Below are positions 41,293-64,000 of a DNA stretch of 64,000 nt, one piece after another. Origin of the DNA: Rubrivivax sp. (GTDB lineage Bacteria > Pseudomonadota > Gammaproteobacteria > Burkholderiales > Burkholderiaceae_C); the NCBI GenBank assembly GCA_049274755.1, contig JBASTF010000206.1, positions 22,682 to 86,681 of the forward strand, given 5' to 3'. Within the stretch, counting starts at the first letter, position 1; each line of letters opens with the position of its first letter. The notes beneath the pieces are model-generated. The model ran no database searches. It had not been told where the DNA came from and saw nothing but the letters and a program-made list of their open reading frames with translations. Position numbers and translations under genes: made by a program.

Positions 41293-41741
41293 GGCATCGC
41301 TCCCGGGTGCTCGTCAGTCCGGTAAACGTAGCCACCCAGCGCCCTCAGAAACGCGGCGCCGCTCATGCGACTGGCTTCGTAGAGCAGCCTGGCCGCATCG
41401 ACCAGCGGGTCGGGCCGACTCGCCTCGACCCAGATCAGGCCGGTGACCTCAAGGGAAAGGTCGTCGCGTTCGCCAATGAGCGGGCCGATCTTCACGTGGC
41501 GCACGGCGGTGTCGTCCAGCAGCGCGAGCAGCACATCGGCCTGGTCGATGGGCGACATCTCGCGCTCGGCTACCACGCCGAAGGCCACCTGGCCGCCTTC
41601 CATGTGCAAGGCGCGGTCGGCTAGCCAGGCTTCCACTCGGCGCTGAAACGCCGCCTCCTGGGACGGCGCCAGGCCACGGGCCAGTCGCACCTGCACTGCG
41701 AAGCTCTGCACGGCGGTGGGTTGGAACGGAAGGCTGCTCAC
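41289..41741 (-). CDS. Hypothetical protein (150 aa), coupled to the integrase; loosely YggL/DUF469-like
   Basis: GTG 41741 overlaps the integrase stop (GTGA), giving 'VSSLPFQPTAVQSFAVQVRLARGL...'. The family call is weak. Confidence 0.45.
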   Translation of the reverse strand: MSSLPFQPTAVQSFAVQVRLARGLAPSQEAAFQRRVEAWLADRALHMEGGQVAFGVVAEREMSPIDQADVLLALLDDTAVRHVKIGPLIGERDDLSLEVTGLIWVEASRPDPLVDAARLLYEASRMSGAAFLRALGGYVYRTDEHPGAMP

Positions 41742-43060: not shown

Positions 43061-43289
43061 GGGCCACCTTGCCGTTGGCCATGGGCAGGCTCAGCGCATC
43101 CGAGCCCACGAACACGCGCATGTCGCGCTCGATGGTTTCCCAGACGAAGAGGATCTTCCGGCCGCCGAATGGGCGCACGTAGTGCGTGCCCTCCAGCAGC
43201 ACGCTGTCCTTCAGCCGTTCGCGGATCGTGCGGACGTCGTACTTGATCTTGGCCGACAACTCGTCGGTCGTGAGATAGGTCGTGCTCAT
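43053..43289 (-). CDS. AlpA/excisionase-like small DNA-binding protein
   Basis: ORF 43053..43529 trimmed to 'MSTTYLTTDELSAKIKYDVRTIRERLKDSVLLEGTHYVRPFGGRKILFVWETI' (ATG 43289). The gene overlaps the int start by 8 nt. Confidence 0.6.
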   Translation of the reverse strand: MSTTYLTTDELSAKIKYDVRTIRERLKDSVLLEGTHYVRPFGGRKILFVWETIERDMRVFVGSDALSLPMANGKVAHG

Positions 43290-43422: not shown

Positions 43423-43644
43423 GTGATTCGATTCAAGCTGGGTGAACAGCTGGAGAAGAAGCAGTTCCGAGACTCGCGGCGCATCACGCTCCAAGAGGTC
43501 TCGGACGCGACCGCAATCAACCGCTCCACCCTCTCAAAGCTCTTGAATCAGAAGGGCTACAGCACGGGTACAGATGTCCTGGACCGGCTGTGCAGCTACT
43601 TCGGGTGCGGCATCGCTGACCTGGTGGAACATGTGCCTGAATGA
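43423..43644 (+). CDS. Small XRE/Cro-type HTH regulator (73 aa)
   Basis: GTG 43423 in ORF 43282..43644. 'ITLQEVSDATAINRSTLSKLLNQKGYSTGTDVLDRLCSYFGCGIADLVE'. Confidence 0.7.
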   Translation: MIRFKLGEQLEKKQFRDSRRITLQEVSDATAINRSTLSKLLNQKGYSTGTDVLDRLCSYFGCGIADLVEHVPE

Positions 43645-43708: not shown

Positions 43709-46700
43709 GTGACAGTGGGGGAACGCACAGAGGACTTGCATTCCGAGTCAGCCGCCGTGCTGACCAGGCCTGCGCACGCCGGCCACGCGGGCATGCGTTT
43801 GCGCTTCGACTCTCCGGTCAGCCGCACGCGCTACCTTTGTGCGCTGACAAGCCTGCTCTTCGGCGCAAGCAGCAAAGTCACCGCCGTTTTCCACGCCGGT
43901 GCGTTGCGAGACGATCTGACCGCAGAGGAGATCGCCGATCGTCTCGTCCGCGGCGCCGTCAACGAATTGCTCTTCGACGCAACGTCCGGCGGGCGGGCGC
44001 TGCCAGTCGCAGTCGGCGCCTCGGCAGCCACCGACAGCGATGTCCACCTGCGCATCAGCTTCTCAGCTGGACCTGTCGTATCTCATCTGTGGCTGCAGGC
44101 CGATGCCGACTTGGCCGCGCCCATCGCCACACTGGCATTGCAGACCGCAAACAATGGGTTCGCTCTCGATGCTGCCCACGCGTTTGCAGGTCTTGCTCTC
44201 CGATCAGGAGGGTTCAATGACGCCGAACTCGATGGCGAGCACCCGGTCGTGTGGCATGCCAGCAAGACTTCCGACACGGCCCGCCCAGTTCACAGCGCCC
44301 TTCACGACGCGGTCTGGGCCACCTCAGCGCAGATCATTGGCAAGGCCGAACTCTGGGTCACCGGCGTACCGATCCCCGTGCCGCGCCAGCCTCAGGCCGG
44401 TTGGTGGGAACAGTACGACGAGCTCACGCGCAACCCAAAGGAGTCTCTGACGGAGCTCCAAGCGCTTCTGGCGAAGCACTTCGAGATCCCGTTTGCGTGG
44501 ACCCTCGTCGACCAGGGTGCCGCGCCAGCGGGAGCGTTCATGTCGCCGCCCGAGGCGCACGCTCTTGCGCGAATCGTGCCGCAGGCAGACCACGTAGTCC
44601 TGGCAGTTGACCTTGAACAGCCAGCTCCGCTGATTGCGGAAGTTCTGCTCCACCTCTGCGCGCACCTTCGACTCGGGCATGTCCGGCCCGGAGATGCGTG
44701 GGGCCACTGGGATACGCAGGCCTCGCTGTCACAGACGCCCCATCGCCAGTGGGATCGAGACGCCCACTCATTCCTCCGAACCCACTGCGCTCGGCCTATT
44801 CGCCGAGTCACTTCGCTCGAAGAGTGCAACGCACGTGAGAAGGCCTGGCTGGTCTTGCACGATCACATCGGGCGCATGGTGGGCCAGTCGCGAACCCTGC
44901 ACGCAGCGACCGAGCAGTACCAAGCGGCCGCCTACCAGCGCCAGGCGGCACAGCGGCTGGTGGCGCAACTGGAAGAGTACGGTGGTGCCATGCTGTGCGA
45001 CGGCGTGGGCTTGGGCAAGACCTACGTTGCGACCACCGTCGCCGTTCACTACGCCAATCAGTGGCGTGACCAGCTTGCACAGCTAGGTCGATCGGCCACC
45101 GACGACCCATTCCGCATCACAGTGCTCTCGCCCAACTCGGTGGTCAGCACCTGGCAGCGCGAGGCCATTGCGCCGCTCGCCATGCACGGTGTGCCGCTGG
45201 CCACGATTCGCGTGCTCTCGCACTCCAAGCTCTCGCGCATCGTGCCGTCGAGCGACATCCTCACCCGCAGCCGTGCGGGTGAGAGCGACATGGAGCACCT
45301 GCTCTTGTCAGACCTGGTGATCGTGGACGAGGCTCACAACTTCCGCTCCGTCGGCGCGCGCCGCACCACGGTGCTGCGCGACCTTTTGCGCCTGCAGCCG
45401 CGCAAAGACCTGCGCCGCAAGGTACTGCTGCTCACCGCAACACCCGTCAACAACAGCCTGGAAGACTTGCGCCAACAGGCGGCGCTGATGTTCGGCAAGC
45501 CGCTGCTCTTCAACGACAACCTCTCGGCCGAGAAGTACCGCTCCCGAGTTTTCAAGGATGTCGAAGAGCGTGTCGGCAAGGCAGGCAAGGTCAAGGGCGC
45601 ATCCGATGTCGCGGCACTGCTCGTCCATGGCGATGCGTCTGCGAAGTTCGCCTATGCCCCCGACTTCCGCGACGACGTTCAGTTCGGCGTGCAAGTGCCC
45701 CGTGTTGGCGATTACCTCAAGGAGCAGGAGAAGCGTCTCATCGCCCAACAGGCGGCCGTGCGCGCTGCCATCCAAAGCGGGCAGCCGCCTGCCGAGACGC
45801 CAGCACGCATCGCTGGCGAGCTGCTGGACCGGATCGTGGTTCAGCGCTCTCGGGCGCTGTGCAAGCAGATCGAACGCGAACAAGGCACCAACGTGCGCTT
45901 GCTGTTCAGGCCCGACGCCGCCACCCCCGAGAAGCTCGTCTACGAGGACGTCTACGACGACACGCACGACGTGCTCGCCCGGTTTCTTCCGCTGTTTGAG
46001 ACCGAAGGCCAAGCCGCGGATAAGGCCACCACGCCGCTCTCGCTCAAGGTCTACATGTGGGCGGACATCCGGGATGGCATCCGCAGTGCAGATGAGACAT
46101 CATCGGTTGTCGGCCTCCAGCGCGTGCTGGTTCTGAAGCGCCTGGAGTCGTCACCCGTCGCCTTTCTGATCACCCTGCTGCGGCTGTTGGCGCTGCACGC
46201 GCATCGGTTGAAGCAACTGGGAGAACTGTGCCGGGAGCTCGGTGACAGGAAGCGCGACAAGGCGCTGGCCGATGAGGTAGCGGACCTGATCGACTCGATC
46301 AAGCCGGTCGAGCGCGACCGAATCGATGCCCTACTGACGGCAGGCACACGGTCGAAGACCCGCGCGGCAGAGCTGCTGGACCGGTGGAGCAAGGCGCACA
46401 TGAGTGCCAAGGCTGCTGCCGACACCGATGACCCGCTGCCTCCGCAACTGGACCTGTTCGGCGACGAAGACGAGAAGACCACGGAGCGCCGAGAACAACT
46501 CGACCGCCTCTGGAACTTGCGCGAGCACCTCACCCGCGACCTGGCCACACTGCTCCGCGTTGCCCCTGGGCTGACCGACATCATCTTCGGGCGCTTTGCC
46601 CAAAGCGACTGGCCCCAGCGCTTCATCAACGGCGGGCAAGATGTCGACTGGCCGAAGTCTGCCGCGTGGGCGATGCGCATCGTCACCGACGCCAAGCTGC

Positions 46701-48100
46701 AGCGACTGATGGCCCGCCTGCTGCGCGCGCGTAAGGACGGGCAGAAGGTCATCGTCTTCTCGCAGTTCACCGACACACTGGCCTACCTGGGCTCCGTTCT
46801 GCGCGCGGCAACAGTGCTCGAGCGCAACGAGTGGAAGACCGTGCTGCGCGAGCTGTCGGCTGACGCGGGCCACACCGTGTCGAAGCAAGAGGTGCTCGAC
46901 CTGATCAGCCGCATCGCCGTGGTGAGCGGTGAGACCGAAGAGCGGGACGCCGTCATCCATGCCTTTGCGCCGTTCTACCGGCTGGGCCCATCCCGCCCCC
47001 GCATTGCCGGAGCGTCGCCCACAGAACAGCAGCAACTTGACGCGCAGTGGGTCAGCGGCTGGACGCAGGCACTTACGCACCCCACTGACGTGCTCTTCGC
47101 GACTGACGTTCTTGCGGAGGGCGTCAACCTGCAAGACGCGGCGCTGCTCATCAACTTCGACGTTCACTGGAACCCGGTGCGCATGATCCAACGGGCGGGC
47201 CGCATCGACCGCAGGCTGAACCCTGCTATCGAGGAGGCAACCAGCTTCCCGGACCTTGAAGAGCTGGCGCGCACGCTGGGTGCGGAGCCACCGCGCTACT
47301 GGTGGCATGCCCACCCCAGCACTGCGCCCACAACGGTGAACCTGCTCCTGCCCGACGAGCTGGAGGCCGAGCTGCAGCTCCGCGAGCGCATCGCCAACAA
47401 GACACTCGCCATCGACTTCACTCTGGGCCTGGAGCAAGGCACCGGCGCCGAGGCCGACTGGATGGCTGAGTACCGCTACCAAGGCGTCTCGGCACTCAAC
47501 GCCTGGCAGGGCGACCGGGCGATTGAGCAGATTGCAGGCTACCTACAGCGCCTGCGACGGCTGATGACTGAGCGCGGCATAGAGACCGAGTGGCTTACCA
47601 AATGGAACGGCTGGCTGAGAGAGGTCGGTGGCGAACCCGAGCACGCCATCTTGGCCTGGGCACAGCTTGGCCGTAAGGGTGGAGAGGCCAAGGAATACAC
47701 GCGCCAGATCCAGCCGAGGCTCGTTGACGGCGTTCCGCATTGGCTGTGGACGGCAGAGAAGCCGGTCGAGTGGAGCAAGAACTTTTGGCTGGTGCTTGAC
47801 AGCAATACGCATCCTGCCGCGACACGCAAAGACCTCGGCTTCACTGAAGACGCGTCACGCCCCATCGCCGCAGAAGATCTGTTGATGGCATCTCGTCGAG
47901 TGATCGAAGGGGGCGTTGCCATCGAAGAGCTTGGCCGCGAAGTGGGTCGCCCCTTCCAACAGGGCGCGTCGGCCATTGCTGCAGGCGTCTTCGGTGAAGA
48001 TGACCGTCGAGCGATCCAGATCAGAGGGTTCCGAATACTCCAGTTGCGTCATGCCGACATCACGGCAACCACACAAGATTTCAGGGAGAAAGCATGCTGA
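43709..48100 (+). CDS. SNF2-family (SF2) helicase/translocase with an unrecognised ~330-aa N-terminal extension
   Basis: 1463 aa. '[13 protein letters not shown]' (motif I), '[12 protein letters not shown]' (II), '[15 protein letters not shown]' (III), '[14 protein letters not shown]', and '[40 protein letters not shown]' (V/VI). The start (GTG 43709 or ATG 43793) is uncertain. Confidence 0.9.
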
Positions 48101-51100
48101 ACAAGGACGACTTCATACGCCACATTCTCGGCGAGGCTCCTCAGGCGAAGCCGAAGGAGGAGCCGGAGGAGTCCAGCCACATCGAAGGCTTTGACTTCGC
48201 CGACGACGCGCAGGACGCGGACGCCGCGGAGGACACCCGCTTCGTTACGCCACTCCTGCAGGCTGGATTCGGCGACGGCCAAGGCATACCCCGAGCGACT
48301 GTCATTCGCAGCACAGACGCCGTCGCTCGCCACATCCCCGACGAGGTGCGCTACTGGCCCAAGACGCCCACTCGCCCCCACCACACTCTGCTGATCGAAG
48401 CAAACCTGACGCACCGGGAACTGCTGGCCATTCCGGCCTTCAGGTCTCGTCAACTGGCCCACCTTGATATCGCCGAAGACGCCGTGGCACGCCTGGTGGC
48501 CGAAGCATTGGAGGGGTTTCAGCGAGGCGCAGAAGGTATGGACGCCTCAGCGCTCAAGGGCCTGAAGCACGAAACGCTTTGCGTGGTCTCGATCGTCGAC
48601 GAGCGCGAGGGTCACGCGGGCCGCCTGGCGTGCTTCGGCACGTTCAACGCCAAGACCGAAGGTCTGGAAACCTTCTTCTTGACCGAACACGCCCGCACTT
48701 GGGACCGCGCAGACGCGCGCGAGCGCCTGAGCCTCATCTACGAGAGGCAATTCAAGAAGCTCGGCGAGGCCAACTGGCAGGATGCCTTCACGACGACTGA
48801 CGAACGACAGCAGGCCGAGAATCTGCTGGAGGTGTGCACGAAGAAGACAGTCCTGGAAAAGGACGTGCAGGAGTCGATCCTCGACCTCCTGGATACCATC
48901 GCGCGTGGCTTTGGCCTGCGAAAGAAGGCAGACGCCCAGCGACGCTTGCGAGCGTTCCCCTTGCCGGGCGAGCACGACATCGGCATCGACGCCGAGGAAC
49001 GCGACAGCAAGTACGGAGGCACCAATCCGTTCAGCGGTGTCACGCTGCGTGATGACCACAGCCGCCTTCTCGGCTACATCGTCTACCCGCTCAAGACAAA
49101 GTCTGACGCCACGAAGTTGCGCCAGCACCTGGAGTTGAACAACCGCTTCCACAACGTGCTGGTCGTCTACCCAGACGTGAACCAGGCCAGCATCGAGCTG
49201 TGGCAAGGGCGTGAGCAACTGACCGGAAAGCTGCGCAGAGGCCAAAGTCACAAGGACGCTGCCGACGTCGTCAACCTGCTTTCACGCTTCTTCGTCGTGA
49301 GCAAGGCAAAGGTGCGAAATCCGGCGGAATTGGCACAGGAACTGGCTTACCGCGCCCGCTACCTCAGGCGACTTGCCCTCAAGCAACTCGAAGACGAGCC
49401 GGACGAAGGACCCCTCCGTAATCTGTACAACGCCTTCAAGCTAGCTCTGGTCCATGACCAGGACGAAGACGAGTTCGCCGACGCGTTCGCACAGACCATC
49501 ACTTATGGCCTATTGACCGCGCGTTGGCTTGGTAACGACCAGCTAGCGAAGACGGGTGATCGATTCACGAGGCAGAACGCGCTCAAATACCTTCCCGCGG
49601 CCAGCCCCTTCCTCAACGACCTCTTCAAGTCCGTACTCTCACTCAAGCTCGACGAACATCGCGGCCGGCTGCTCTGGCTTGTAGATGACGTCGCTGACCT
49701 CTTGGACCGTATCGACGTGACTTACGTCTTCGGCGCTGGCGATAAGGGCTCAGACACCGCGACCGACCCAGTGATCCACTTCTACGAGCCATTCCTGGCG
49801 GCCTACGACAAGGAGTTAAAGAACAAGCGGGGAGTCTTCTTCACGCCTCGTCCAGTAGTCTCCTACATCGCCCGTAGCGTACACGAGCTCTTGCAGAGGG
49901 ACTTCGGCCTCGAGGACGGCCTCGCGTCGATAGACACGTGGAGCGATGTAGCCAAACGTATTGACGGGTTCGAGATCCCGCAAGGCATTAAAGGCAGCGA
50001 TCCCTTCGTATGCATTCTTGATCCGGCAACTGGCACGGGGACCTTCATTTACGAGTGCATCCAGATCATCGAAAGCACGATGAAGGAGCGCTGGTGCCGT
50101 GAAATTGGTGTGACCTCCTGGCACGATGAGCGCGTGCTGAGCCGCTGGCGAGAATACGTTCCGGCAGCACTGTTGCCAAGAATTTTTGGATACGAGCTAA
50201 TGATGGCGTCCTACGCTGTCGCACACCTCAAGCTCTCATTCAAGTTAGCTGAAACGGGCTGTGAACTCAGTCAAGGCCCCGCAAGCCGGCTAAATGTCTA
50301 CTTGACAAACAGCCTGGAATCACCGACGAAAGCACAAGGCGAACTCGAAGGCATTTCCCCGGCGCTCGCGTCGGAGGCAAGCGCCGTCACAAGCATTAAG
50401 AGCCGCCGGCGCTTCACAGTCTTGATCGGCAACCCGCCATACGCCAACTATTCAGCCAACCTGTCTCCTGAGTCTCGAGCAATCGTCGATAAATATAGAA
50501 CCTTCAGAGGCACTCCGATCCGGGAGAGAAATCAGCTTCAATTCGAGCGCAACCTTCAGGATGACTTTGTAAAGTTCATCGCAATTGGAGAAGAAGAAAT
50601 ACGTCGAAGTAGTGCTGGAGTGCTTGGCTACATTACGAACGCAACCATGCTTGCATCGCCGTCTCTTCGGGGCATGCGGGAGCACCTCAGCAAGACATTT
50701 ACCGATCTATTCGAATTCCACTTGCACGGAGGCGTCAACGAAATCCCCGAAGACTCCCTGAATGATCAAAACGTGTTCGATATCGCGCAAGCGGTCGCCA
50801 TTCACATCCTTGTTCGCCATCCCAAAGCCAAGCTCGCGGCAACAACACCTGTCGTGCATTTCTCAGAGATGTGGGGTCCTCGACCACAGAAATACTCGCT
50901 CCTCGCGGCTGGTTCTGCGTTGACCACGGAATGGCACAAGGTCCAACCCGACCATGAGAACTGGGCCTTCGTGCCGCATGACACTTCTGCAAGTCACGAG
51001 TCACTTCGAGTTGACGACATCTTTGTACGCTTTGGGGCCGGGATAAAAACAAATCGGGATTCCGTCGCAATCGCCTTCGATAAAGACAATCTACTTGAAG

Positions 51101-52038
51101 CCATTAGCGAGTTCGACTCGCAAGTGGCCCCACGCGATGCCAGCAAGTATGTGCAGCCGATCTTGTACCGCCCGTTTGACAAGCGTGTCATCTTCTATCA
51201 CGAAGATGTCGTTGCTAGCCGGTCGCTCCCCACGATGCAGCATGTTCTGGCAGGTCCAAATCTTGGGCTCATCGCATCGAGTACCTGGACTTCACCAGAT
51301 CGATTTAGTGTAAATGTTTCGCGACTAATGGTTGAGATGAAAACCGGAACGCACGACCGCGGAACAACATATTTTCCTCTTTATCGCTATGAGAGTATTC
51401 TCGGTGGTGCGGCACAGAAGACTGCGAATCTACAACCTGATTTTCGGAAGCGCTGGGAGAGCCTTACAAGGACCCGCCTTCTCGCGAAGGGCCATGGCGA
51501 CCTTTCGCAGACAACCGGCCCTGAGGACGTTCTTTACTGGATATACGGCCTTAGTCATTCGCCGGAGTACAGGCGCAGAAACCGAGCGGCGCTTGCCCAG
51601 GGATTTCCGATAGTGCTCTTCCCGAAGACAACCCTTCTACTGGCAGATCTTGTCGCGATTGGCAAGCGCCTTGCTGCGATTCATCTCTTCGAAGAGCTTC
51701 CTGCCGCCACATCTGGGTCATTTATCGGTGAGCGGTATCCTGAGGTCGAAAAGATCGCCTATGCAGATGGCACCGTTTGGATTGATAGGCTGCGAACACG
51801 TGGTTTCGCTGGTGTGTCAGAAGCGGTGTGGGCGCTTCACATTGGAGGGTATCCGGTCTGCGAGAAGTGGCTGAAGGATCGAAAGGGTCGGAACCTATCG
51901 AAGGCGGAAGTTGACCACTATGTGAAGCTAATTGGGGTTCTCGAAGAGACGCTTGAGCTAATGAAGCAAGCTGACCTTTCAATCGCGAAGCACGGTGGAT
52001 GGCCTGATGCCTTCGTAATGCGGGCGAGCACATCATGA
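48094..52038 (+). CDS. Large N6-adenine DNA methyltransferase, PglX / Eco57I / type-ISP-like, with a type-ISP-style C-terminal domain
   Basis: 1314 aa. '[18 protein letters not shown]', '[16 protein letters not shown]', '[16 protein letters not shown]' (SAM motif I) and '[12 protein letters not shown]' (NPPY motif IV). The C-terminus has '[16 protein letters not shown]...[20 protein letters not shown]'. No nuclease motif was seen. Confidence 0.9.
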
Positions 52039-55306: not shown

Positions 55307-57894
55307 CCCGCGCTTCCTTTGACGCGATCGTCACGCGCTTGGCTGCGTCGCCCACGGCGTGCAGCGAGCGCGAGCTGCTCGAACCTTCGCACTGGAGCCT
55401 GGGTGAGGATGCGCGGCTTCGCGAAGACATGCGCTTTCGGGAAACGCCTTGGGGGCAGTGGATGCTCGCCGATGACCTGGTGGCGAATGAGGCGGTCTAC
55501 CGCTGGCTCCATGCTGAGAAGCGTGGGTCGGTGTCACTCGGCGCCGCGCTGGAGCGCGCCGCCGAGGTTTTCGGGCGCAAGTGCGTCTTCTGTACCAGCG
55601 ACTCGCGCTTCGTGCTGCGCCGTGATGAAGTTCATCTGGCGGCTAGCGAGCTGTCTCGGCAGCCAGTCGTCGAACGTGAAGTGGGTGAGCTTGAGAAGTA
55701 CCAAACACACCTGCCGCTCCACAGCCTGAAGGCGGCAGCGGCCTCCGCGCCTGCCGGTGAGTGGGGGGCTCGTGCGCAAGTCCAGGTGATTGAGACGCTA
55801 GGTTGGGTGCGGATCGCGCTGCCCGGGCGCAAGCTCAGTGATCGCATGTTCATCGCCGCCGTCGAAGGTCACAGCATGGACGACGGCAAGAGTGGTCTCG
55901 TCGATGGCGGCTACGCGGTCTTCGAACTCTGGCCCGCGGGCACCAAGCAGAACTTGAACGTGCTGGTGCGGGGAACGTTTTCAGACCCGGAGACCGGCAG
56001 CTACGCGGTGAAGAAGTACGTTGCCGACCAGCGAGACGCAGAGGGTCACCACCACAGGATCTCACTCGTCTCGCTGAACCCGGACAAGGAGCGCTTCCCT
56101 GACATCGAGCTGCTACCCAGGAACGACGACGACATCATGGTCGTCGCCAAGGTGGTGCAGGCACTGGCGCCAAGCGACTACGAGCGGCGCCCGCTGGCCA
56201 GACGGCGTGTGGGGCGTCGAAACCTCAGCGGCAATGAGGTGGGTCTCCGCATTGCCCGTCGGGCCGCTTCGTTTTTCGACGGCGCGGGGACCGAACCTGA
56301 CGACGAGGACACCGACACAGCGCACGATACAGGCTGGCGAACACGGCTTGTGTGCCTGGACGTTGCCGCGGGCGGGCTGCATCTGGAGGTGGGCCCGCTA
56401 CACGGTCTTCCTCTGTTCGCGAAGAAGCTTCGGGTCGTGGGTGGCGCTTGGGACGCCTATGTGTTGGCTGCCAATGCCAAGGCACGCCCCACGCGCGTGC
56501 CGGTACGGCCAGGAACAGGCCCCTGGAGATGGGAAGCGGTCGGTTTCGAGGACGAGCATGAGCTTGGCCTTGGGCAGCTTTCGCACAGCACGCTGGACGA
56601 AGCATGCCCGACCGTGTTCCGCATCGACGCCGATGGTCTGGGACAGCACATCACCAGCCAGACGCTGGCTCTCGGGCAGGCGTATCACCTGCTCTTGCCG
56701 CCAGGCCTTGCTGGGGACGTCGGCACGGAATGCGGCGACGGCTGGCGGATCTGGTCGCTCGATCTCGCTGAGCAGGTCTCAACTGCGAAGCGGCAAGTTC
56801 TGTCCTCGCTGGGCCTCAGTGTTGGCGAGGCGTCTCCACGTCTTCAGTGGGCATTGGCTTCCGCCTCGGCGTGGCAGATGAGTGCACGAGGGGCGAGCTA
56901 CCCTGTCTTCGAGGCGGGCTTGGAGCTGCTGGTGGATGTTGGCGGCATCGCTCCGGACGAGGGCGACGAGACTGTGCTGTTCCTTCATGGTCCGTCTGGT
57001 GCCGATCGCCTCAAGATCTTGGGCAATGGGCTTGTATCGCTGGGTTGCCCTCAGGTGGGGCGTTGGGCTTGTGCGTTGATGCCGGGGCTGACCAGCGTGC
57101 CCGCTGCATGGCTCTTCTTCGAGGTCGCAGAGAGCGCAACTGGGCACATCGGTGCTTCGTGGACTGCCAGTGCGCCAAGCGGCCTGTCTTCGCTGGAGGC
57201 AACGGCGCCGCCGGGCTGGCCCGTCTCGCTGCGATGGCGAGTTGTCGCTGCGCATGAGGAGACGCTCGCAACGCTGCACGGTAACGATGACCACACGGTG
57301 CCTTTGGAAGGCATCTTCGCGATCCTGGAGGCCCGTGCCGCCCGCGCGCGCCTTGCCGATGTCATCGTCGACTTCCGCGAACTAGGCAGCCGCGCGATCG
57401 CGCATGATGGCCGAGCTTCGTTGAAAGACGTGCGTGAACAGCTGGCGACGCTGTGGCAGCAGCGGGCTGGCCTCGTGCATAGCCGCGCAGGGGACTGGCT
57501 GCAGCTGATGAAGCCTTGGTTTGAGCCGATCACTGCCCTGTTCGGCTACGGCATTGCTTCGCTCGAACTACCATCAGCCGGCACCGAATCGCACGACCTT
57601 GCTGCATGGCTGCTCACGGTCGACGAGCGGGCCGACGGCGTCATCATCCGTTCGCCATCACGCGTTCTCGTGCTGACGAGTGACGTTGATGCAGCGCTTC
57701 GCGAGCACCGTGCCTGGATCGACAACGCATGCGCAGCGGTAAAGGTGCGCGATGCGATCGTCACTGATGGAGCCAGCTGGACAACCCATCGCAAGGGCAG
57801 CCAACAGCTCAAGCAGCACCAGTGGAATCTCGATGATGTCATCGCAAGCGACAACATCGACGAGATGCTGGGCGACCTCGCCGAGGGTTTGTAG
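55303..57894 (+). CDS. Unknown 863-aa protein: N-terminal region + LexA/S24-peptidase-like domain + 516-aa shared C-terminal module
   Basis: GTG 55303 overlaps the mcrC stop (GTGA). 'THLPLHSLKAAAASAPAGEW...AAVEGHSMDDG...GSYAVKKYV' shows Ser...Lys dyad spacing typical of S24. The module from 'RLVCLDVAAGGL' (nt 56344) to the end is paralogous to 60861..62408. Confidence 0.8.
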   Translation: MTRASFDAIVTRLAASPTACSERELLEPSHWSLGEDARLREDMRFRETPWGQWMLADDLVANEAVYRWLHAEKRGSVSLGAALERAAEVFGRKCVFCTSDSRFVLRRDEVHLAASELSRQPVVEREVGELEKYQTHLPLHSLKAAAASAPAGEWGARAQVQVIETLGWVRIALPGRKLSDRMFIAAVEGHSMDDGKSGLVDGGYAVFELWPAGTKQNLNVLVRGTFSDPETGSYAVKKYVADQRDAEGHHHRISLVSLNPDKERFPDIELLPRNDDDIMVVAKVVQALAPSDYERRPLARRRVGRRNLSGNEVGLRIARRAASFFDGAGTEPDDEDTDTAHDTGWRTRLVCLDVAAGGLHLEVGPLHGLPLFAKKLRVVGGAWDAYVLAANAKARPTRVPVRPGTGPWRWEAVGFEDEHELGLGQLSHSTLDEACPTVFRIDADGLGQHITSQTLALGQAYHLLLPPGLAGDVGTECGDGWRIWSLDLAEQVSTAKRQVLSSLGLSVGEASPRLQWALASASAWQMSARGASYPVFEAGLELLVDVGGIAPDEGDETVLFLHGPSGADRLKILGNGLVSLGCPQVGRWACALMPGLTSVPAAWLFFEVAESATGHIGASWTASAPSGLSSLEATAPPGWPVSLRWRVVAAHEETLATLHGNDDHTVPLEGIFAILEARAARARLADVIVDFRELGSRAIAHDGRASLKDVREQLATLWQQRAGLVHSRAGDWLQLMKPWFEPITALFGYGIASLELPSAGTESHDLAAWLLTVDERADGVIIRSPSRVLVLTSDVDAALREHRAWIDNACAAVKVRDAIVTDGASWTTHRKGSQQLKQHQWNLDDVIASDNIDEMLGDLAEGL
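56344..57891 (+). repeat. Copy A of the 1548-nt (516-codon) paralogous coding module
   Basis: It aligns in register with 60861..62408. Shared anchors include RLVCLDVAAGGL, RPGTGPWRWEAVGFE, GWRIWSLDL, GRWACALM, ATAPPGWPVSLRW, DFRELG, HDLAAWLLT, SPSRVLVLT and KVRDAIVTDG. Confidence 0.85.
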
Positions 57895-60800
57895 TGGCGC
57901 CGTCCGACTATGAGTCGCTCAGCGACGAGAACAAGCGGCGCTACGGCACCGACATCGGTCGTATCGGGCCCATGCTGTTGGCGGACCGGTACGACGACCG
58001 GACGCACTTCATCTTCGAGCTGCTGCAGAACGCGGAAGATGCGATCGGCCGACGCGGCGACGCGGTCGGGCCAAGAAAGGTCACCTTCACGCTGACACCG
58101 GGCAGGCTGACGCTCTCGCACTTCGGCCGACCGTTTGACGAAGCCGATGTACGCGGCGTCTGTGGCATCGCCGAGAGTACGAAGGACAAGCACTCGATTG
58201 GCCGGTTTGGCATTGGCTTCAAGTCGGTGTACACGTTCACGAGCCGCCCAGAAGTGCACTCAGGCGAAGAAGACTTTGCCATTGAGAACTACGTTCTGCC
58301 GAAGGCGGTTGAACGCTCCACTCGCGAACCAGGCGAAACACAGATCATCCTGGCCCTGAGGCCTGACGACCCGTCCGCCGAGCAGGAGATCGAACAAGGC
58401 TTCCAGCGCCTCGGCGCCGGTGCGCTGCTGTTCCTCCAGCACATCGACGAGATCAACTGGAGTGTGGCTGGCGGCGCCTCTGGCCTCTATCTGCGGGGCG
58501 CACCCGTCCCACTCGGACCGAATGTTCAGCGCATCACTCTGATCGGCCAGGATGGCGACCAGAAAGAGGTCGATCAGCACTGGCTGGTCTTTCACAGCGA
58601 GGTGGCGACTGAGAACGCGGACAAGGTGGGGCGGGTGGAGGTCGCCTTCTCCTTGGCACGTCACCCAGAAGTCTCTGAGCGATGGACAGTCCAGCCTATC
58701 GCCGTATCTCCGTTGGTGGTGTTCTTCCCCACGGTGGTGTCGACGAATCTCGGATTCCTTGTCCAAGGGCCCTATCGAACGACGCCGAGCCGGGACAACA
58801 TACCCCGCAGTGATCCGTGGAACCAGGGGTTGGTGAAGCAGACAGCCCGCCTCGTCATCGACGCGGTTCGGTGGATGCGGGACAACGACATGCTGGACAC
58901 GACAGCACTGCGCTGCCTGCCGACTGACAGAACGAAGTTCTCGGAAGGCGCGATGTTTGCGGCCGTGTTCGATGCGGTGCGGCAGGCGTTCCTTGAGGAA
59001 GCGCTGCTGCCCCGCTTCGACGGTGGTTTCGTGTCCGCCCGCCAAGCGAGGTTGGCGCGCACGCAGGAGCTGAGAGAGCTGTTCAGCGCCGAGCAGGTTG
59101 CGTTGCTGTTTGGCACCCAGGGAAGCGCCTGGCTGTCGGGCGACATCACACAGGACAAGGCCCCGGAGCTGCGGCGGTATCTGCTGCAGGAGTTGAAGGT
59201 TCCAGAGGTGACCCCCGAGCAGATCGTGCCCAGGCTTGGTAAGGAGTTTCTCAAAGCGCAAACAGACGAGTGGATCGCAAGGCTGTACGCGTTCCTGGAT
59301 GGCCAGAAGGCCTTGTCCGAGCGAGTGGCCGCGGTGCCCTTGGTCCGCCTCGACAACGGCACCCATGTCGTGGCCCGAGTTGCAGGCCGCGCGCTGGCAT
59401 TTCTTCCGAGTGCCATCGAGACAAGCTTTCCCACGGTGCGGCGCGCCGCCTGTGCAACCCCTGCGGCCCGCAGCTTCTTGATTTCGTTGGGGCTCACCGA
59501 GCCAGATCCTGTCGATGACGTGATCTGGAACGTTCTGCCCAAGTACAAGCGGACTCGGGCCGAGAGCGAACAGGTCGACTACGCCGAAGACATCACCCGA
59601 ATACTCAAGGCCTTTGACACCGATTCGAAGGCGCAGCGGGAAAAGCTGCTCGGGGCACTGCGCGAAGCGCCGTTCGTGCAGGCGCTTGATACCGGCAGTG
59701 GGAAGCGCTCCGCGTCAAAACCAGGAAACGTCTACATCGCCACCGATCGACTGAAGGCCTTGTTCGCAGGCGTTGATGGCGTGCTGGTCGTCGATGATGA
59801 GGTCGACAGCCTTCGAGGCGAGCCCGTACGTGACCTGCTGGTTGCCTGTGGGGCCAGTCGCTACCTGGCTCCGAAGCAGATTGCGTCAGCACTGAGCACC
59901 GAGGAACTTATTCAGATGCGCGTTCGTGCCGGCCTGGAACGGGCAACTTGGGCGCACCCGATTGAGGACTTCACGGTACGAGGGCTCACCGAAGTGCTGG
60001 GCACGCTGAACATTCTGCCGCCAGAGGAGGCTCGCGCGCGAGCTGAAGTTCTCTGGGAAGCCCTTGCGGATCTGGAAGGGCGGGGAACAGGGTCGTTCTA
60101 CGGCACATACCGCTGGGGCTTCTCCCAGCAGACCAAGACCGTGCGGTTCGACGCCGCTTTCGTTCAACAGCTCAGGCGCGCCAGTTGGATTCCGGATGCC
60201 ACTGGCGATCTGGTTCGGCCGGAACTGGTGACGTTCGACTCGTTGGGGTGGAAGCCGAATCCGTTCTTGCTGGACAGGATTGCCTTCAAGCCGCCGATCA
60301 TCGATCAACTGGCGAAGCAGGCCGGCATTGAGCCAGCGGCACTGGATCTGCTGAGAAAGCTTGGCATCACCAGCCTCGCAGACCTTGCGCGCATGGGAAT
60401 CGCCAGCAAGCCCGCGGTCTCGCCAACGGTTGAGGACACGCCCGGCGGCGAGCCACACAGCAGCGATGCAAATGCGTCGGCGGCAGAAGATGCGCCCGAC
60501 TTGCCCGATGAGAATTCGGATGAGGAACGCACCGACGCCGACAGCAAGACACCAAGCCCCAGTACCGAATCCGATCCTGATACTCAGCTGAAGGACAAGG
60601 CCGACAACGAACCCGATGACGCGAATGATCGCGAGACGGAAGCAAGAGTCACCAGAGCGCCCCGCCAAACCAGCCCTGTCGTCAATCGGCAAACCAAGGC
60701 AACGACGGGTCAGAGGAAGCGCAAAGTCACCGGCCGTGATGGTCTCGCGGAACAGGCGGCCAGACTTGGCCGTCGTATCACCGCTTTCTTCGGTGAGATG

Positions 60801-62411
60801 GCAGATGCCGAAGACGATGAGAACGTTGACAGCCCGCCGCAGAGTTCGGGCTGGCAGGCACGATTGGTGTGTCTCGACGTCGCCGCCGGCGGTCTGCAGC
60901 TCGAGATTGGCCCACTGGATGGGCTGCCGAGCTTCGTGAAGAAGCTGCGCGTCGTAGGTACGGACTGGGATGCCCTCGTGTTGGCGGCGAATGTAAGGCT
61001 GCGCGCCAGCCGCACCCCAGTTCGCCCGGGAACAGGGCCATGGCGATGGGAAGCCGTTGGTTTCGAGGAAGAGCAGGACCTGGAGCTGGACAAGCTGGCG
61101 CTGAACGCACTGGGAGCGACCGAAGTTCTCGTGTTCCGCCTCGATGCGGATGGTGCGGGTCGACCCGTGGTGAGCAAGACGCTATCACCCGGACAGACAT
61201 ACCGACTCCTGCTTCCTCCTGGCCAGAGCAGCGATCTGGGTGTTGAACTCGACGCTGGCTGGCGCATCTGGTCGCTCGACCTGGCGATGCCATTCACATC
61301 GTCAACTAGAGAGCTTCTTGCCTCACTAGGGCTTGGCTTGGGTGAATCCTGGCCACGACTCGACTGGGCTGTTGTCCCGGCTTCTTCATGGCGCAGTAAC
61401 GCGCGTGGAGAGAGCTACCCGATTTTCGAATCAGGAACAGAACTGTTCGTCAACCTGAGCGGTGTTTTGCTAGAGGACGGCGACGACGCGGCGGTATTCA
61501 TGCATGGCCCAGCTACGACGGAGCAGTTTCCCGTTACCTCTGATGGACTTGTGTCCCTTGGCAAGCCCGCTGCTGGACGGTGGGCCTGTGCGCTGATGCA
61601 CTCTCGCACTAGCGTGCAGACCACCACGCTGGTGTTTGAAGTCTCACCCAGCGGGGTAGAGCACGTTTCCGCCATGTGGGCCGTCAGCGCGCCAACAGGG
61701 CTGGTCGAGATCGAGGCAACTGCCCCACCCGGCTGGCCAGTGTCGCTACGCTGGAGTGGGCTGGCGTCAAAAGAGGAGTCTCTGGCGACCCTCTACGCGG
61801 ACAACGATCGAAATATCTCCTTCGAGCGCGTTCACCCACTACTGCTGGCACGTGCTGCGCGCACACCCGTTGCCGATGTGGTAATCGACTTCCGCGAGCT
61901 GGGTCGACGCCTGATCTCGCACGATGCCCGCGCGAATTTGGCGCAGCTTCGCGAGCAAGTCTCCATGTTGTGGAAGCAACGCGCGGACCTTGTGCAAGCA
62001 CGGTCGGGGGCGTGGCAGCTTCTCATGCCTGGATGGTTCGAGCCTGTTGTGAGCCGCTTGGGCTATGGGGTCGAAGCGCTCACACTGCCTACTGATATGG
62101 ATGCGCCACACGACCTGGCAGCGTGGCTTCTCACCATCGATGAGCGCGAAAAGGGGACGATCACCCGCTCTCCATCGCGCGTTCTAGTCCTGACCACCCA
62201 AATCGACAGTGTGATGAGTGACCAGCGCGAGTGGATCGACGCTGTCTGCACTGCTGCAAAGGTGCGGGATGCGATCGTGACCGACGGCACGCGCTGGACC
62301 TGCCATCGCAAAGGCGATCGACAAATCAATCGGCGGGGCTGGAATCTGGATCACGCCGCCGAACTCGGCATCATGGACGAGATGCTGAACGATCTCACGG
62401 AGGGCTTGTGA
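57894..62411 (+). CDS. Unknown 1505-aa protein: sacsin-type GHKL ATPase head + large middle region + acidic linker + 516-aa shared C-terminal module
   Basis: GTG 57894 overlaps the previous stop (TAGTG). 'HFIFELLQNAEDAIGRRG' (Bergerat N-box) and 'IGRFGIGFKSVYTF' (G2 box). Nt ~60400-60850 form a D/E/S/P-rich linker. The C-terminal 516 aa are paralogous to 56344..57891. Confidence 0.85.
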   Translation: MAPSDYESLSDENKRRYGTDIGRIGPMLLADRYDDRTHFIFELLQNAEDAIGRRGDAVGPRKVTFTLTPGRLTLSHFGRPFDEADVRGVCGIAESTKDKHSIGRFGIGFKSVYTFTSRPEVHSGEEDFAIENYVLPKAVERSTREPGETQIILALRPDDPSAEQEIEQGFQRLGAGALLFLQHIDEINWSVAGGASGLYLRGAPVPLGPNVQRITLIGQDGDQKEVDQHWLVFHSEVATENADKVGRVEVAFSLARHPEVSERWTVQPIAVSPLVVFFPTVVSTNLGFLVQGPYRTTPSRDNIPRSDPWNQGLVKQTARLVIDAVRWMRDNDMLDTTALRCLPTDRTKFSEGAMFAAVFDAVRQAFLEEALLPRFDGGFVSARQARLARTQELRELFSAEQVALLFGTQGSAWLSGDITQDKAPELRRYLLQELKVPEVTPEQIVPRLGKEFLKAQTDEWIARLYAFLDGQKALSERVAAVPLVRLDNGTHVVARVAGRALAFLPSAIETSFPTVRRAACATPAARSFLISLGLTEPDPVDDVIWNVLPKYKRTRAESEQVDYAEDITRILKAFDTDSKAQREKLLGALREAPFVQALDTGSGKRSASKPGNVYIATDRLKALFAGVDGVLVVDDEVDSLRGEPVRDLLVACGASRYLAPKQIASALSTEELIQMRVRAGLERATWAHPIEDFTVRGLTEVLGTLNILPPEEARARAEVLWEALADLEGRGTGSFYGTYRWGFSQQTKTVRFDAAFVQQLRRASWIPDATGDLVRPELVTFDSLGWKPNPFLLDRIAFKPPIIDQLAKQAGIEPAALDLLRKLGITSLADLARMGIASKPAVSPTVEDTPGGEPHSSDANASAAEDAPDLPDENSDEERTDADSKTPSPSTESDPDTQLKDKADNEPDDANDRETEARVTRAPRQTSPVVNRQTKATTGQRKRKVTGRDGLAEQAARLGRRITAFFGEMADAEDDENVDSPPQSSGWQARLVCLDVAAGGLQLEIGPLDGLPSFVKKLRVVGTDWDALVLAANVRLRASRTPVRPGTGPWRWEAVGFEEEQDLELDKLALNALGATEVLVFRLDADGAGRPVVSKTLSPGQTYRLLLPPGQSSDLGVELDAGWRIWSLDLAMPFTSSTRELLASLGLGLGESWPRLDWAVVPASSWRSNARGESYPIFESGTELFVNLSGVLLEDGDDAAVFMHGPATTEQFPVTSDGLVSLGKPAAGRWACALMHSRTSVQTTTLVFEVSPSGVEHVSAMWAVSAPTGLVEIEATAPPGWPVSLRWSGLASKEESLATLYADNDRNISFERVHPLLLARAARTPVADVVIDFRELGRRLISHDARANLAQLREQVSMLWKQRADLVQARSGAWQLLMPGWFEPVVSRLGYGVEALTLPTDMDAPHDLAAWLLTIDEREKGTITRSPSRVLVLTTQIDSVMSDQREWIDAVCTAAKVRDAIVTDGTRWTCHRKGDRQINRRGWNLDHAAELGIMDEMLNDLTEGL
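60861..62408 (+). repeat. Copy B of the 1548-nt (516-codon) paralogous coding module
   Basis: See copy A. The length is identical and the anchors checked stay in register. About three-quarters of the first 57 residues are identical by my count. Confidence 0.85.
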
Positions 62412-63394
62412 TGCCGCTTTCGAACGTTTCCCGCGAGGAGGCAGCATCGCGACTTGTACAACGCCTCGGTAACCCGCCCGACTCGGTGGAGGCGCTGAGC
62501 GATCTGCTTCGACAGGAGGTGCATGCGCGCCAGCACGCACCCCGAGCGGCGACGCTTTTGCGACTGGCTCGACTCTTAGCCCCGGCTGTGAGCGTCGATC
62601 AGCAACGCCTTGACGAGGTCTGCGATGCGCTCGAACGCGAAAGCGATGTGGTGTTAGCGCCTGGTGGCGTCCTGTACGCGACGCCCACAAGGGTAGTGAT
62701 ACTGAAGCACGTTGCCCGGATCTTCAGCAGCGTTCCGACGCGGCCTTTGGCCGCGGTACTCGGGCGGGAGATTGTGGCAAAGGGGCCCACTCGCACTGTC
62801 ACATCGTTCGATGGCCTGACCGATGCCGTTGCATCGGTGGGGGGCGCTGACGTGTCGCCAGAAGTCTGGGCGGGCATGGACCGGACGCCGCCAGCCGATG
62901 CTGCGTTGCTCGCAAAGCTGGACCAGCGCCTTGAGTGGCAAGCGGCAGGGGCCGGATCGCTTGAACGGGATGGCAGTCTCGAGTGGCGCACTTGGCAACT
63001 GACGCCCGAGGGCATGCGCTGGAGACGCAGCGCTGAGGGACGACTCTGGTGGGCGCGCACCCGTTTCGGTGGGCATCTTCGCGCATGGACATCGGGCGGG
63101 TCCCCAGCCACAGCGCCGTTCGTTGACCTGAGCGCGGACGACGCTGACCGGGCACGCTTCGCACTTTCGCGCGAGCTCCCCGGTGCGGCTGTGTTGCGAA
63201 TCGTGCGCTCTGGATCGCGAGTGGCGCTTGAACTCCCCGGGTGGCTCCCGCGCTCAGAGTACCGATGGCTCTCGCTTCACGCCGAGCCCACACCTGAAAC
63301 CAAGGGCCTCGGTTGGGAGATCGCAGCAGACGACGAAGCAATGATCACGAAGCCTCTGGTGGAACGTCTTGGACTCGCTGTGGAGGCGACATGA
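62411..63394 (+). CDS. Hypothetical protein (327 aa), coupled on both sides
   Basis: ATG 62411 lies within ORF 62231..63394 and overlaps the upstream stop (TGATG). Its stop overlaps the next start (ATGA). No motif was recognised. Confidence 0.7.
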   Translation: MPLSNVSREEAASRLVQRLGNPPDSVEALSDLLRQEVHARQHAPRAATLLRLARLLAPAVSVDQQRLDEVCDALERESDVVLAPGGVLYATPTRVVILKHVARIFSSVPTRPLAAVLGREIVAKGPTRTVTSFDGLTDAVASVGGADVSPEVWAGMDRTPPADAALLAKLDQRLEWQAAGAGSLERDGSLEWRTWQLTPEGMRWRRSAEGRLWWARTRFGGHLRAWTSGGSPATAPFVDLSADDADRARFALSRELPGAAVLRIVRSGSRVALELPGWLPRSEYRWLSLHAEPTPETKGLGWEIAADDEAMITKPLVERLGLAVEAT

Positions 63395-64000
63395 CGAGAC
63401 GGCAACTCACCATCAAGCCGAGCTGCATGCGGGAGATCACCACGTTCCCGTCTGAACGCGCTGCTCTGCTCTGGGAAAAGATCGATGCACTCGTATCAGA
63501 CCCACTCCCAGACGGGAAGGTGAAGAAGAAGCTCAAGGGTGCAGAAGGCGTCTACCGCATGCGCGTGACTGATCACCGCGTCTTCTATCGCTTTGGCGAC
63601 CACTGGATCAGCCTGCTCGGCATTCGGCGTCGCGCGGAAGACACCTACGACGGGGTACCAGACGGAACCGCGGAGGCCCCCACGCAGGTTGACACTGATG
63701 ACGATCTTGACGCGCTGATCGCGAAGGCGCAGCCGAAGGTCTTCGAATTCAAGACGACTGCGCCGGAAACGCCTCTACCCGAATCCATCACGAAGGAGCT
63801 CTTGCGTGAGCTCCGAGTGCCCATCGCGGCGGTGCCTACGCTCTTGCGCTGCGAGACAGAAGAGGCGTTGCTCGAAGCACCCGTGCCGCCTGATGTCCTC
63901 GGACGGGTAGTCGATCGGCTCTTCCCGCCAACCATTGATCGGCTCGACCAGCAGCCAGACCTTGTTGTCCCGTCCACCATGGACCTCGTCCGATACAAGG
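63391..64000 (+). CDS. 5'-partial gene: RelE/ParE-like N-terminal domain followed by a linker; it runs off the window and is probably the start of a large helicase-type protein
   Basis: My own translation from ATG 63391 is open to the window end. It reads 'MTRRQLTIKPSCMREITTFPSERAALLWEKIDALVSDPLPDGKVKKKLKGAEGVYRMRVTDHRVFYRFGDHWISLLGIRRRAEDTY...VVPSTMDLVRYK'. It is not in the ORF track because no stop lies inside the window. Confidence 0.7.
   Translation, partial: MTRRQLTIKPSCMREITTFPSERAALLWEKIDALVSDPLPDGKVKKKLKGAEGVYRMRVTDHRVFYRFGDHWISLLGIRRRAEDTYDGVPDGTAEAPTQVDTDDDLDALIAKAQPKVFEFKTTAPETPLPESITKELLRELRVPIAAVPTLLRCETEEALLEAPVPPDVLGRVVDRLFPPTIDRLDQQPDLVVPSTMDLVRYK

Follow-up and report, generated by a model that had tools for sequence, protein, structure and literature searches.

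The stretch of DNA analysed here, a 64,000-nucleotide section of contig JBASTF010000206.1 from Rubrivivax sp. (hereafter the window), ends in an array of eight co-directional genes, g1–g8, that begins at position 43709. The array probably belongs to a cooperative, co-transcribed anti-phage superoperon of ten genes and ~33 kb, composed of two exchangeable cassettes and carried on mobile elements, of which the first seven genes and about a third of the eighth lie in the window. Cassette L (g1–g4) would supply an SNF2 ATPase, a sequence-specific N6-methyladenine (m6A) methyltransferase and McrBC, and cassette R (g5–g10) a Druantia-type-I-like helicase-nuclease engine led by one or two adaptors (g5 and g6). 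The two cassettes exchange independently and are predicted to stay fused in one translationally coupled transcript. The new ingredient is a rare family of putative adaptors, named g5C after the C-terminal module of g5, with variable heads that include a LexA-like head. The array is a modular superoperon and not one indivisible machine, because its halves recombine, g6 is optional and the right half is found with BREX in one related locus (L020).

Gene order and overlaps in the window and in related loci

The genes of the array within the window are as follows.

43709–48100, plus strand: g1, 1463 amino acids (aa), SNF2-family ATPase
48094–52038, plus strand: g2, 1314 aa, N6-adenine DNA methyltransferase
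52035–53927, plus strand: g3, 630 aa, McrB-type AAA+ GTPase
53927–55306, plus strand: g4, 459 aa, McrC nuclease subunit
55303–57894, plus strand: g5, 863 aa, putative S24/LexA-like domain and C-terminal g5C module
57894–62411, plus strand: g6, 1505 aa, sacsin-type GHKL ATPase and g5C module
62411–63394, plus strand: g7, 327 aa, putative distant relative of Druantia type I DruD
63391–64000, plus strand, cut by the window end: g8, N-terminal 203 aa of a RelE/ParE-UvrD protein

The seven junctions from g1/g2 to g7/g8 overlap by 7, 4, 1, 4, 1, 1 and 4 nucleotides (nt) respectively. The original prediction had quoted a stop/start string for each junction; all seven were found where it had placed them, and all eight plus-strand open reading frames (ORFs) exist. 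The g7 start at 62411 is backed by a constant length of 327 aa in ~120 homologues. Elsewhere in the window, overlaps were found in 4 of 17 pairs of same-strand neighbours, using a rough gene list based on GC content at third codon positions (GC3). Against this baseline, seven overlaps in seven junctions are unlikely to be due to chance, with a probability on the order of 1e-4 or less, which is approximate because the GC3-based gene list is incomplete. A consensus scan inside the array, a method that is weak for a 65% GC genome, gave no excess of promoter-like sites (3 vs 2.8 in shuffled sequence) or terminator-like sites (18 vs 14.3).

Ten reference proteins were mapped onto 37 loci (designated by L numbers where needed), 34 of which have array-gene relatives. 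Xenophilus, Ramlibacter, Rhodanobacter and Myxococcus all show the order g1-g2-g3-g4-g5-(g6)-g7-g8-g9-g10, as do several genomes of Myxococcales and Polyangiaceae, one genome each of Ardenticatenia and Acidobacteriota, and soil metagenomes. Conservation of gene order in related genomes was thus confirmed, with the order kept throughout the loci mapped. Homologues of g5 are 59–80% identical across Betaproteobacteria, Gammaproteobacteria, Myxococcota and Chloroflexota. Overlaps of 1, 4, 7 or 8 nt were found at essentially every junction, including in loci only 38–45% identical in g5, and the same junctions overlap (by −1, −4, −7 or −8) in nearly all related loci, even those that are ~40% identical. 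This pattern recurs in relatives from at least five phyla, where it extends to the g8/g9 and g9/g10 junctions.

The relatives add g9 and g10 and have a g8 of 688 aa, in agreement with the earlier expectation that the array continues past the window edge. The description of the array as an eight-gene unit was correct as to the eight ORFs and incomplete as to the extent, since the relatives have ten genes and end after a PD-(D/E)xK nuclease, g10. In L037 and L004 the gene after g10 lies on the opposite strand, indicating that the array ends at g10. McrC is located directly upstream of g5 in every g5-anchored locus with upstream sequence, except L020, and all g1-anchored contigs that are intact and long enough have g2-g3-g4-g5. 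The g5 and g7 genes are as conserved and constant as the helicases. The original reading of the array as a single functional unit can be kept in the sense of a conserved, co-transferred and translationally coupled block; with halves that recombine and an optional g6, the term indivisible would be too strong.

The array is rare, with 16 loci found in a scan of one genome per species across 185,579 species. In the PLSDB plasmid collection g5 was not found, and the array was not found among IMG/VR viral contigs. The exceptions to the conserved pattern of overlaps are copies that have decayed, including those with an insertion sequence element in g8 (L001), a broken and frameshifted g1/g2 (L004), a truncated g5 (L012), a truncated g6 (L017) and internal deletions (L033), and L031 retains a g1 remnant on its own, next to part of an integrase and what is probably a tRNA remnant. 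This frequent damage suggests that the array is costly and often lost.

Predicted components of the two cassettes

The identification of the first four genes as SNF2 helicase, PglX/type-ISP-like methyltransferase, McrB and McrC was borne out by domain matches and motifs. Pfam SNF2-rel_dom and Helicase_C matched g1, which has long N- and C-terminal extensions and intact motifs I, II and VI (GLGKT at 434, DEAH at 540 and QRAGRIDR at 1161). Matches of g1 to the DrmD, HmaA and BrxH models were weak (NCBIfam DrmD 80 bits, with a cutoff of 610), and no nuclease was detected in it by the Pfam scan. These features suggest a role like that of ArmA, DrmD or BrxHII. Identity of g1 to its relatives is 73–86%. 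Its N-terminal extension (residues 1–400, window 43709–44908) is without a family match and includes an HxxxH stretch that is loosely metallopeptidase-like and lacks the glutamate.

For g2, matches were found to Pfam Type_ISP_C (194 bits), Eco57I and N6_Mtase and to PADLOC REase_MTase_IIG (491 bits), and the motifs DPATGTGTF and NPPY are present. No nuclease or helicase domain was detected in g2, the best Pfam match of its N-terminal 550 aa being non-significant (E=0.2). Residues 800–1300 are gap-rich and have a mean pairwise identity of 0.22–0.45, compared to 0.5–0.66 for the rest of g2, and the genes neighbouring g2 are 70–90% identical to the window copies. The McrB-type g3 matched Pfam AAA_5 and NCBIfam McrB (129 bits, under the equivalog cutoff), carries Walker A GPPGTGKT, Walker B DE and the signature NTAD (NxxD), and has orthologues that bear DUF8426 and McrB_lid. 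Its N-terminal ~250–280 aa are replaced in L007, L011, L014, L015, L019, L022, L027 and L032; this variable domain, for which a sequence search of the PDB gave no match, is presumably a DNA reader, possibly of the PUA/EVE-like kind. The McrC-type g4 matched Pfam McrBC (205 bits) and NCBIfam McrC (71 bits, under the equivalog cutoff for Escherichia coli McrC), with a PD...D-T-K motif (MAPDLLVV...LIVDTKWK). Two segments of the array are hypervariable, the recognition domain of the methyltransferase and the N-terminal domain of McrB, and both are expected determinants of restriction specificity. Their hypervariability, together with the decay of many copies, is consistent with a defence-type array.

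The last four genes had been considered unrecognizable in the original prediction, which proved too pessimistic: g6 is sacsin-type and TmtA-like, g8 is a RelE-UvrD protein, g7 is a putative DruD relative and g5 has a putative S24/LexA-like domain. The g5 protein as a whole had no Pfam, PADLOC or NCBIfam match. It consists of an N-terminal helical region, the putative S24/LexA-like domain and the 565-aa C-terminal g5C module, which ends in ...DEMLGDLAEGL. Pfam Peptidase_S24 aligned with residues 150–300 of the window protein (E=0.016) and was the sole recurrent Pfam family across the g5C family, in 23 of 52 diverse members with a best E of 1.2e-5. All 24 homologues have G152, S191 and K237, and 23 of them have A151. 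The stretch HLPLHSLKAAAASEPAGEW ... EGHSMDDG ... AVKKY resembles the LexA cleavage site followed by the Ser/Lys dyad, which would make A151-G152 a candidate cleavage site and Ser191 and Lys237 a candidate dyad. The S24 assignment was made because of the family-wide Pfam matches and the conserved Ser/Lys pair. Foldseek returned weak LexA matches for g5 (prob 0.87), and a g5 profile search of the PDB found nothing. In the AlphaFold2 (AF2) model of g5, the g5C module was predicted with a pLDDT of 70–88; Foldseek against the PDB gave no fold match for this model at E<1e-3.

The g6 protein matched Pfam SACS, NCBIfam P_loop_sacsin (79 bits) and sacsin in the PDB (E=0.0014), and its residues 32–777 matched PADLOC TmtA of Tiamat (169 bits). 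Its GHKL motifs include the N-box ELLQNAEDA and GRFGIGF. Residues 943–1505 of g6 are 54% identical to residues 300–863 of g5, defining the shared 565-aa module. A g5C profile search recovered 138 clusters (50% identity) among 1.84 billion representative proteins. The heads attached to the module vary, most being g5-like and ~300 aa long and others being GHKL, Lhr/BrxHI DEAD helicase, SNF2 with Mrr nuclease, or SNF2 alone. Of the other proteins with a length like that of TmtA, a single one scored in the search, weakly (E 7.6e-4) and with a head of unassigned type. The g5C module does not correspond to canonical Druantia DruB or DruC, as hhalign against both pKF715A proteins was negative. None of the papers found in the literature describes g5, g6 or g7, or the module common to g5 and g6.

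In many members of this very divergent family (P0244–P0346; A4 members 23–54% identical to g5), the final dozen or so residues are of the form ~[DE]xFxxFLxxxxxG[VLI]-COOH. The tail codons of g5 and g6 (window 57859–57891 and 62376–62408) run directly into the overlapping start of the next gene. In L020, from a Deltaproteobacteria metagenome-assembled genome, a gene at 7811–12301 encodes a BrxHI/Lhr helicase (PADLOC BrxHI 825 bits) fused to a g5-type C-terminal module. This fusion gene sits between BREX genes and g7-like, RelE-UvrD and DruE genes, joining BREX to a Druantia-like core. For the module itself, we infer a docking adaptor with a terminal anchoring peptide. A more extended proposal is that g5C plugs exchangeable heads (S24, GHKL, Lhr/BrxHI, SNF2-Mrr) into a Druantia-type helicase-nuclease core, that the S24 head self-cleaves on RecA-coated single-stranded DNA (ssDNA) and that the family bridges methylation systems (ARMADA-like, BREX) to Druantia. 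In this full form the proposal is speculative and unlikely.

The window copy of g7 had no Pfam, PADLOC or NCBIfam match. Its orthologues matched PADLOC DruD1 (1e-10 in L015, 3.7e-8 in L013, 1.6e-5 in L004, ranging up to 0.04), mainly over the C-terminal ~85 aa, the same region in which hhalign aligned g7 with DruD of Pseudomonas putida pKF715A (E=0.0063). The AF2 model of g7 had a pLDDT of 54.5 and gave no Foldseek match in the PDB at E<1e-3. Among the Foldseek results for the g5 and g7 models, a weak HsdR match (prob 0.63) was not used as evidence for a nuclease fold. Residues 29–84 of g8 matched Pfam ParE_toxin, and its full-length relatives (688 aa) matched UvrD-helicase, UvrD_C and PADLOC GajB, predicting a RelE/ParE-like domain fused to a UvrD/GajB-like superfamily 1 (SF1) helicase, the architecture of ArmD. 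It is 36% identical to the helicase of an ARMADA-like array on a Pseudanabaena plasmid. That array (L035 9678–27198, Pseudanabaena galeata) is of the form SNF2-methyltransferase-(toxin-antitoxin genes)-UvrD-YprA, with the g8-type helicase before YprA.

In the relatives, g9 is a YprA helicase of 1870–1957 aa with DEAD, YjiV_N and MZB (DUF1998) domains. It matched PADLOC DruE1 with 1411 bits, compared to at most 663 for other DruE types, and is 36–42% identical over most of its length to DruE of the canonical DruA-E operon (pKF715A, L034). The final gene of the relatives, g10, encodes a 383-aa PDDEXK_1 nuclease with a PADLOC DruK match, a weak Cas4 match, a D...DFK motif and cysteines patterned as in Cas4. 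The window copies of g1–g4 and g6 retain their catalytic motifs intact, as do g8–g10 of the relatives.

Named systems and rival explanations

It had been stated that the array matches no named system. No single system fits feature by feature, as stated, while the parts do map to ARMADA, McrBC, Tiamat and Druantia. From its domains and gene order, the array appears to be an ARMADA/Druantia-I hybrid with an embedded McrBC.

ARMADA Type II comprises an SNF2-like ArmA, a PglX-like ArmB, a YprA ArmC, described with a C-terminal active Vsr-type nuclease, and a RelE-GajB-like ArmD in strict order (Bell et al. 2025, PMC12458937). It has been validated in E. coli, with all four genes required for defence (PMC13463889). 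The array is similar in having an SNF2 gene first and a PglX-like methyltransferase second (at the level of domain and position), a large YprA helicase with DUF1998/MZB (in relatives), the RelE-UvrD/GajB-like g8 and carriage on integrative elements. It differs in having ten genes instead of four, in the order A-B-[McrB-McrC-g5-g6-g7]-D-C-nuclease instead of the strict A-B-C-D, with UvrD before YprA and five genes between the methyltransferase and UvrD, and in a separate Cas4-like nuclease gene, where ArmC is described with a fused Vsr nuclease. The protein comparison was made against one cyanobacterial ARMADA-like array, that of Pseudanabaena, rather than against E. coli ArmA-D. In this comparison g1 showed motif-level likeness to the SNF2 protein, g2 had no BLAST match to the methyltransferase, and g9 had a summed score of 88 bits to the YprA protein (motif-level) compared to 852 bits to type I DruE.

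Druantia Type I consists of DruA-DruB-DruC-DruD-DruE (Doron et al. 2018). A g9 of the type I DruE kind is shared (in relatives), and g7 is a possible DruD relative of similar size. Unlike Druantia I, the array has a RelE-UvrD helicase between the DruD-like gene and DruE, gave no PADLOC DruA, DruB or DruC match for any of its genes, and encodes its own methyltransferase alongside SNF2, McrBC and a Cas4-like nuclease. For type I Druantia, a link to m6A marks on host DNA has been reported with no methylase identifiable in the system.

A DISARM-like SNF2/PglX/YprA-DUF1998 cassette has been reported as often associated with canonical McrBC, with its description deferred (Bell et al. 2024, PMC11090510, Fig. 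2 green clade). The array resembles this clade in that NxxD McrB and McrC are co-directional with SWI2/SNF2, a PglX-like methyltransferase and YprA. The parts of the published text that were available give no gene-by-gene description, and no mention of g5, g5C, the GHKL ATPase, the DruD-like gene or the trailing nuclease was found in them. DISARM itself had been dismissed for want of DrmA and DrmB. This argument failed, as the relatives reaching that far have a fused DrmA/DrmB-type YprA helicase with DUF1998/MZB that is DruE-like. The array shares with class 1 DISARM (DrmD-DrmMI-DrmA-DrmB-DrmC) an SNF2 ATPase, an N6-adenine methyltransferase, a DEAD/DEAH helicase with DUF1998 and a nuclease, and differs in its five extra genes. 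Membership in class 1 was rejected on other grounds: g1 scored 80 bits for DrmD, where 610 is the cutoff, helicase and MZB are fused with DrmA scores of at most 47 bits, and the nuclease is of the PD-(D/E)xK and not the phospholipase D (PLD) type.

The remaining candidates each account for one part of the array. The NxxD GTPase g3 with its adjacent PD-(D/E)xK g4 is similar to McrBC type IV restriction; the objection that classical McrBC is a two-gene unit stands, as McrBC of the array overlaps genes on both flanks and this is conserved in relatives. The N-terminal half of g6 (32–777) aligns with TmtA and has sacsin-type GHKL motifs, similar to Tiamat. Membership in single-gene Tiamat was rejected, since TmtA covers only this half, the rest being g5C, and g6 is operon-embedded and optional. 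A type ISP/IIG system was rejected, with only methyltransferase and Type_ISP_C detected in g2 and SNF2 being a separate gene without a detected nuclease. BREX was rejected in agreement with the original prediction, as neither PglZ nor BrxC was matched in g1–g8, although the distant L020 does pair cassette R with BREX. For Hma, the match of g1 to HmaA was over the Helicase_C motif only (59 bits), and there was no HmaB or HmaC match.

Several observations weigh against reading the array as one cooperative superoperon. The hidden Markov model (HMM) libraries divide its genes among restriction-modification type IIG, McrBC, TmtA, GajB, DruE and DruK models. A separate g6 gene was not detected in eight loci (L004, L005, L013–L016, L019 and L020). 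In L014 and L015 McrC is 71–82% identical to that of the window and g5 43–44%, and in L004 the corresponding values are 39 and 69%; these discordant histories mean that g1–g4 and g5–g10 need not form one complex. L020 lacks SNF2, methyltransferase and McrBC and has BREX genes (a PglZ fragment and BrxD) ahead of the right half, and in the BREX-1 operon of L036 (plasmid of Deinococcus sp. NW-56) a g8-type helicase (17971–19992) separates BrxC from the methylase. Of the L035/L036 pair, the RelE-like N-terminus was confirmed for the Pseudanabaena copy, and the g8-type helicase looks like a promiscuous accessory of methylation-based systems. For g5, the S24 match of the window protein is itself weak (E=0.016), hhalign found no match between the g5 family and E. 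coli LexA, and the Smith-Waterman score of g5 and LexA was only ~2 standard deviations above shuffles, which is not significant; the AF2 models of the N-terminal half of g5 and of g7 are of low confidence. Furthermore, g9 and g10 lie outside the window and are attributed to this copy from its relatives, and defence activity is deduced from homology and context.

Much of this would also be expected of a defence island, in which self-sufficient systems (an IIG/ISP-like methyltransferase with SNF2, McrBC, Tiamat-like and Druantia-like) are packed head to tail and act additively at most or in loose synergy. The recombination of the left and right halves, the optional g6, the replacement of cassette L by BREX in L020 and the presence of the RelE-UvrD helicase in both BREX and ARMADA-like arrays all fit such an island, and published superoperons of CoCoNuT/McrBC with other restriction systems indicate that packing of this kind is common. 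Against an island, by detected domains g2 is no stand-alone restriction enzyme and g1 is without a detected nuclease, g6 is TmtA-like in its N-terminal half only and has its C-terminal module in common with g5, and ARMADA-type parts are divided over both cassettes (SNF2 and methyltransferase on the left, RelE-UvrD on the right). Cassette R is always beside a methylation-based partner among the loci with upstream sequence, and the g4/g5 boundary overlap is kept exactly even where cassettes have been exchanged. The splitting of the genes among known systems by annotation tools had been named beforehand as a sign against a single unit; PADLOC models do split the parts and the halves do recombine. 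A defence island is the main rival explanation and is considered rather unlikely.

Two further readings are less compatible with these data. The array could be a type II ARMADA, with four ARMADA-type genes doing the work and McrBC, g5–g7 and the nuclease as passengers. All four ARMADA II roles are present, the cyanobacterial plasmid carries SNF2, methyltransferase, toxin-antitoxin, UvrD and YprA genes whose relative order is that of the array, minus the insert, and Bell et al. report that the DISARM-like YprA cassette is often found with McrBC. This reading is improbable given the violated ArmA-B-C-D order, a YprA far nearer to type I DruE than to the ARMADA-like protein tested (852 vs 88 bits summed), the motif-level or absent matches of g1 and g2 to their Pseudanabaena counterparts, the separate Cas4-like nuclease, where ArmC is described with a fused Vsr, and g5 and g7 genes that are as conserved and constant as the helicases. 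A role other than anti-phage defence, in maintenance, in exclusion of plasmids or integrative and conjugative elements (ICEs), or as a DNA-repair module of an integrative element, is suggested by the adjacent integrase and xis in the window, the ICE-type genes adjacent in L037, the repair helicases among YprA/MrfA relatives and the link to the SOS response suggested by an S24/LexA-like domain. Such a role is highly improbable: conservation does not extend to the carrier genes, neither PLSDB plasmids nor IMG/VR contigs yielded the array, every recognizable component is from a family with demonstrated anti-phage roles, and hypervariable methyltransferase recognition with McrB reader domains is typical of restriction systems. 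A cooperative superoperon of two exchangeable cassettes was retained as the probable explanation.

Carrier genes, proposed mechanism and implications

The genes immediately upstream of the array are the following.

41738–43060, minus strand: tyrosine integrase, Pfam Arm-DNA-bind_2, Phage_int_SAM_3 and Phage_integrase, GC3 0.90
43053–43289, minus strand: excisionase/AlpA-like ORF of 78 aa overlapping the integrase start, translation contains MSTTYLTTDELSAKIKYDVRTIRERL
43423–43644, plus strand: XRE-type helix-turn-helix (HTH) ORF of ~73 aa ending 64 bp before g1, translation contains ITLQEVSDATAINRSTLSKLLNQKGYSTGTDVLDRLCSYFGCG

The excisionase/AlpA-like ORF had no Pfam match and was assigned from sequence pattern and position, and the XRE-type ORF is possibly a controller protein. 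The reported position of the array beside XRE and xis-int genes holds for the window and does not extend to the relatives, as no counterpart of the XRE, xis or integrase genes was found next to the array in related loci. These genes are parts of this particular carrier element and not of the array. The flanks of the array differ between relatives. Another small ORF, whose translation resembles by eye an HTH of the excisionase family, immediately precedes g1 in L025 and L031, and in L037 genes of ICE type (DUF932) are located beside the array. The GC3 of the array is 0.74–0.81 compared to ~0.9 for neighbouring host genes, indicating horizontal acquisition.

Further left, the window contains a 2092-aa ORF (4296–10574, plus strand, GC3 0.74 and thereby below the host value) whose sole Pfam match is Phage_integrase at residues 1564–1697. 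This unusually large recombinase-like protein adjoins a HipA-like kinase gene (2277–3593, plus strand). A second defence- or mobile-element-like gene group lies to the left of the integrase (33413–41292, minus strand), in which the Pfam scan identified the following.

33413–34135, minus strand: NYN and OST-HTH protein
35022–38063, minus strand: UvrD-like SF1 helicase fused to ankyrin repeats, 1013 aa
40453–41292, minus strand: T5orf172-domain protein

Gene content and order, coupling and its conservation, modular exchange, intact catalytic motifs and the shared module with its variable heads are observations. For the superoperon, we infer every biochemical step, the physical complex and the defence activity from the predicted components, and the following mechanism is proposed on that basis. 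The fast-evolving recognition domain of g2 would determine the motif at which this methyltransferase marks host DNA, probably with help from the g1 SNF2 protein as in DISARM and ARMADA. The YprA and UvrD helicases would engage unmarked incoming DNA with free ends or ssDNA replication intermediates, and the Cas4-like g10 would degrade it; DruE of Druantia III unwinds double-stranded DNA with 3′ overhangs. McrBC, with its exchangeable reader domain, would cover phages that modify their own DNA. The g5 and g6 proteins may dock onto the helicase core via the shared C-terminal module and terminal peptide, with heads predicted to be regulatory or to act as sensors. One would be an S24 domain that cleaves itself as LexA does, possibly in response to RecA-coated ssDNA, and the other a clamp formed by the GHKL ATPase.

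Druantia I, ARMADA and DISARM share a helicase family. By joining a methyltransferase, ARMADA-type partners, McrBC and type-I-like DruE and DruD in one conserved and presumably coupled transcript, the array provides a natural intermediate for testing cooperation between them. Profile-based annotation would break such an array into unrelated systems. The predicted adaptor family offers mutable handles on the wiring between sensor and effector, in the form of its variable heads, its conserved C-terminal peptide and the putative LexA-like Ser/Lys domain. If its predicted function is correct, the S24 head would represent a LexA-type infection or damage switch built into a restriction complex.

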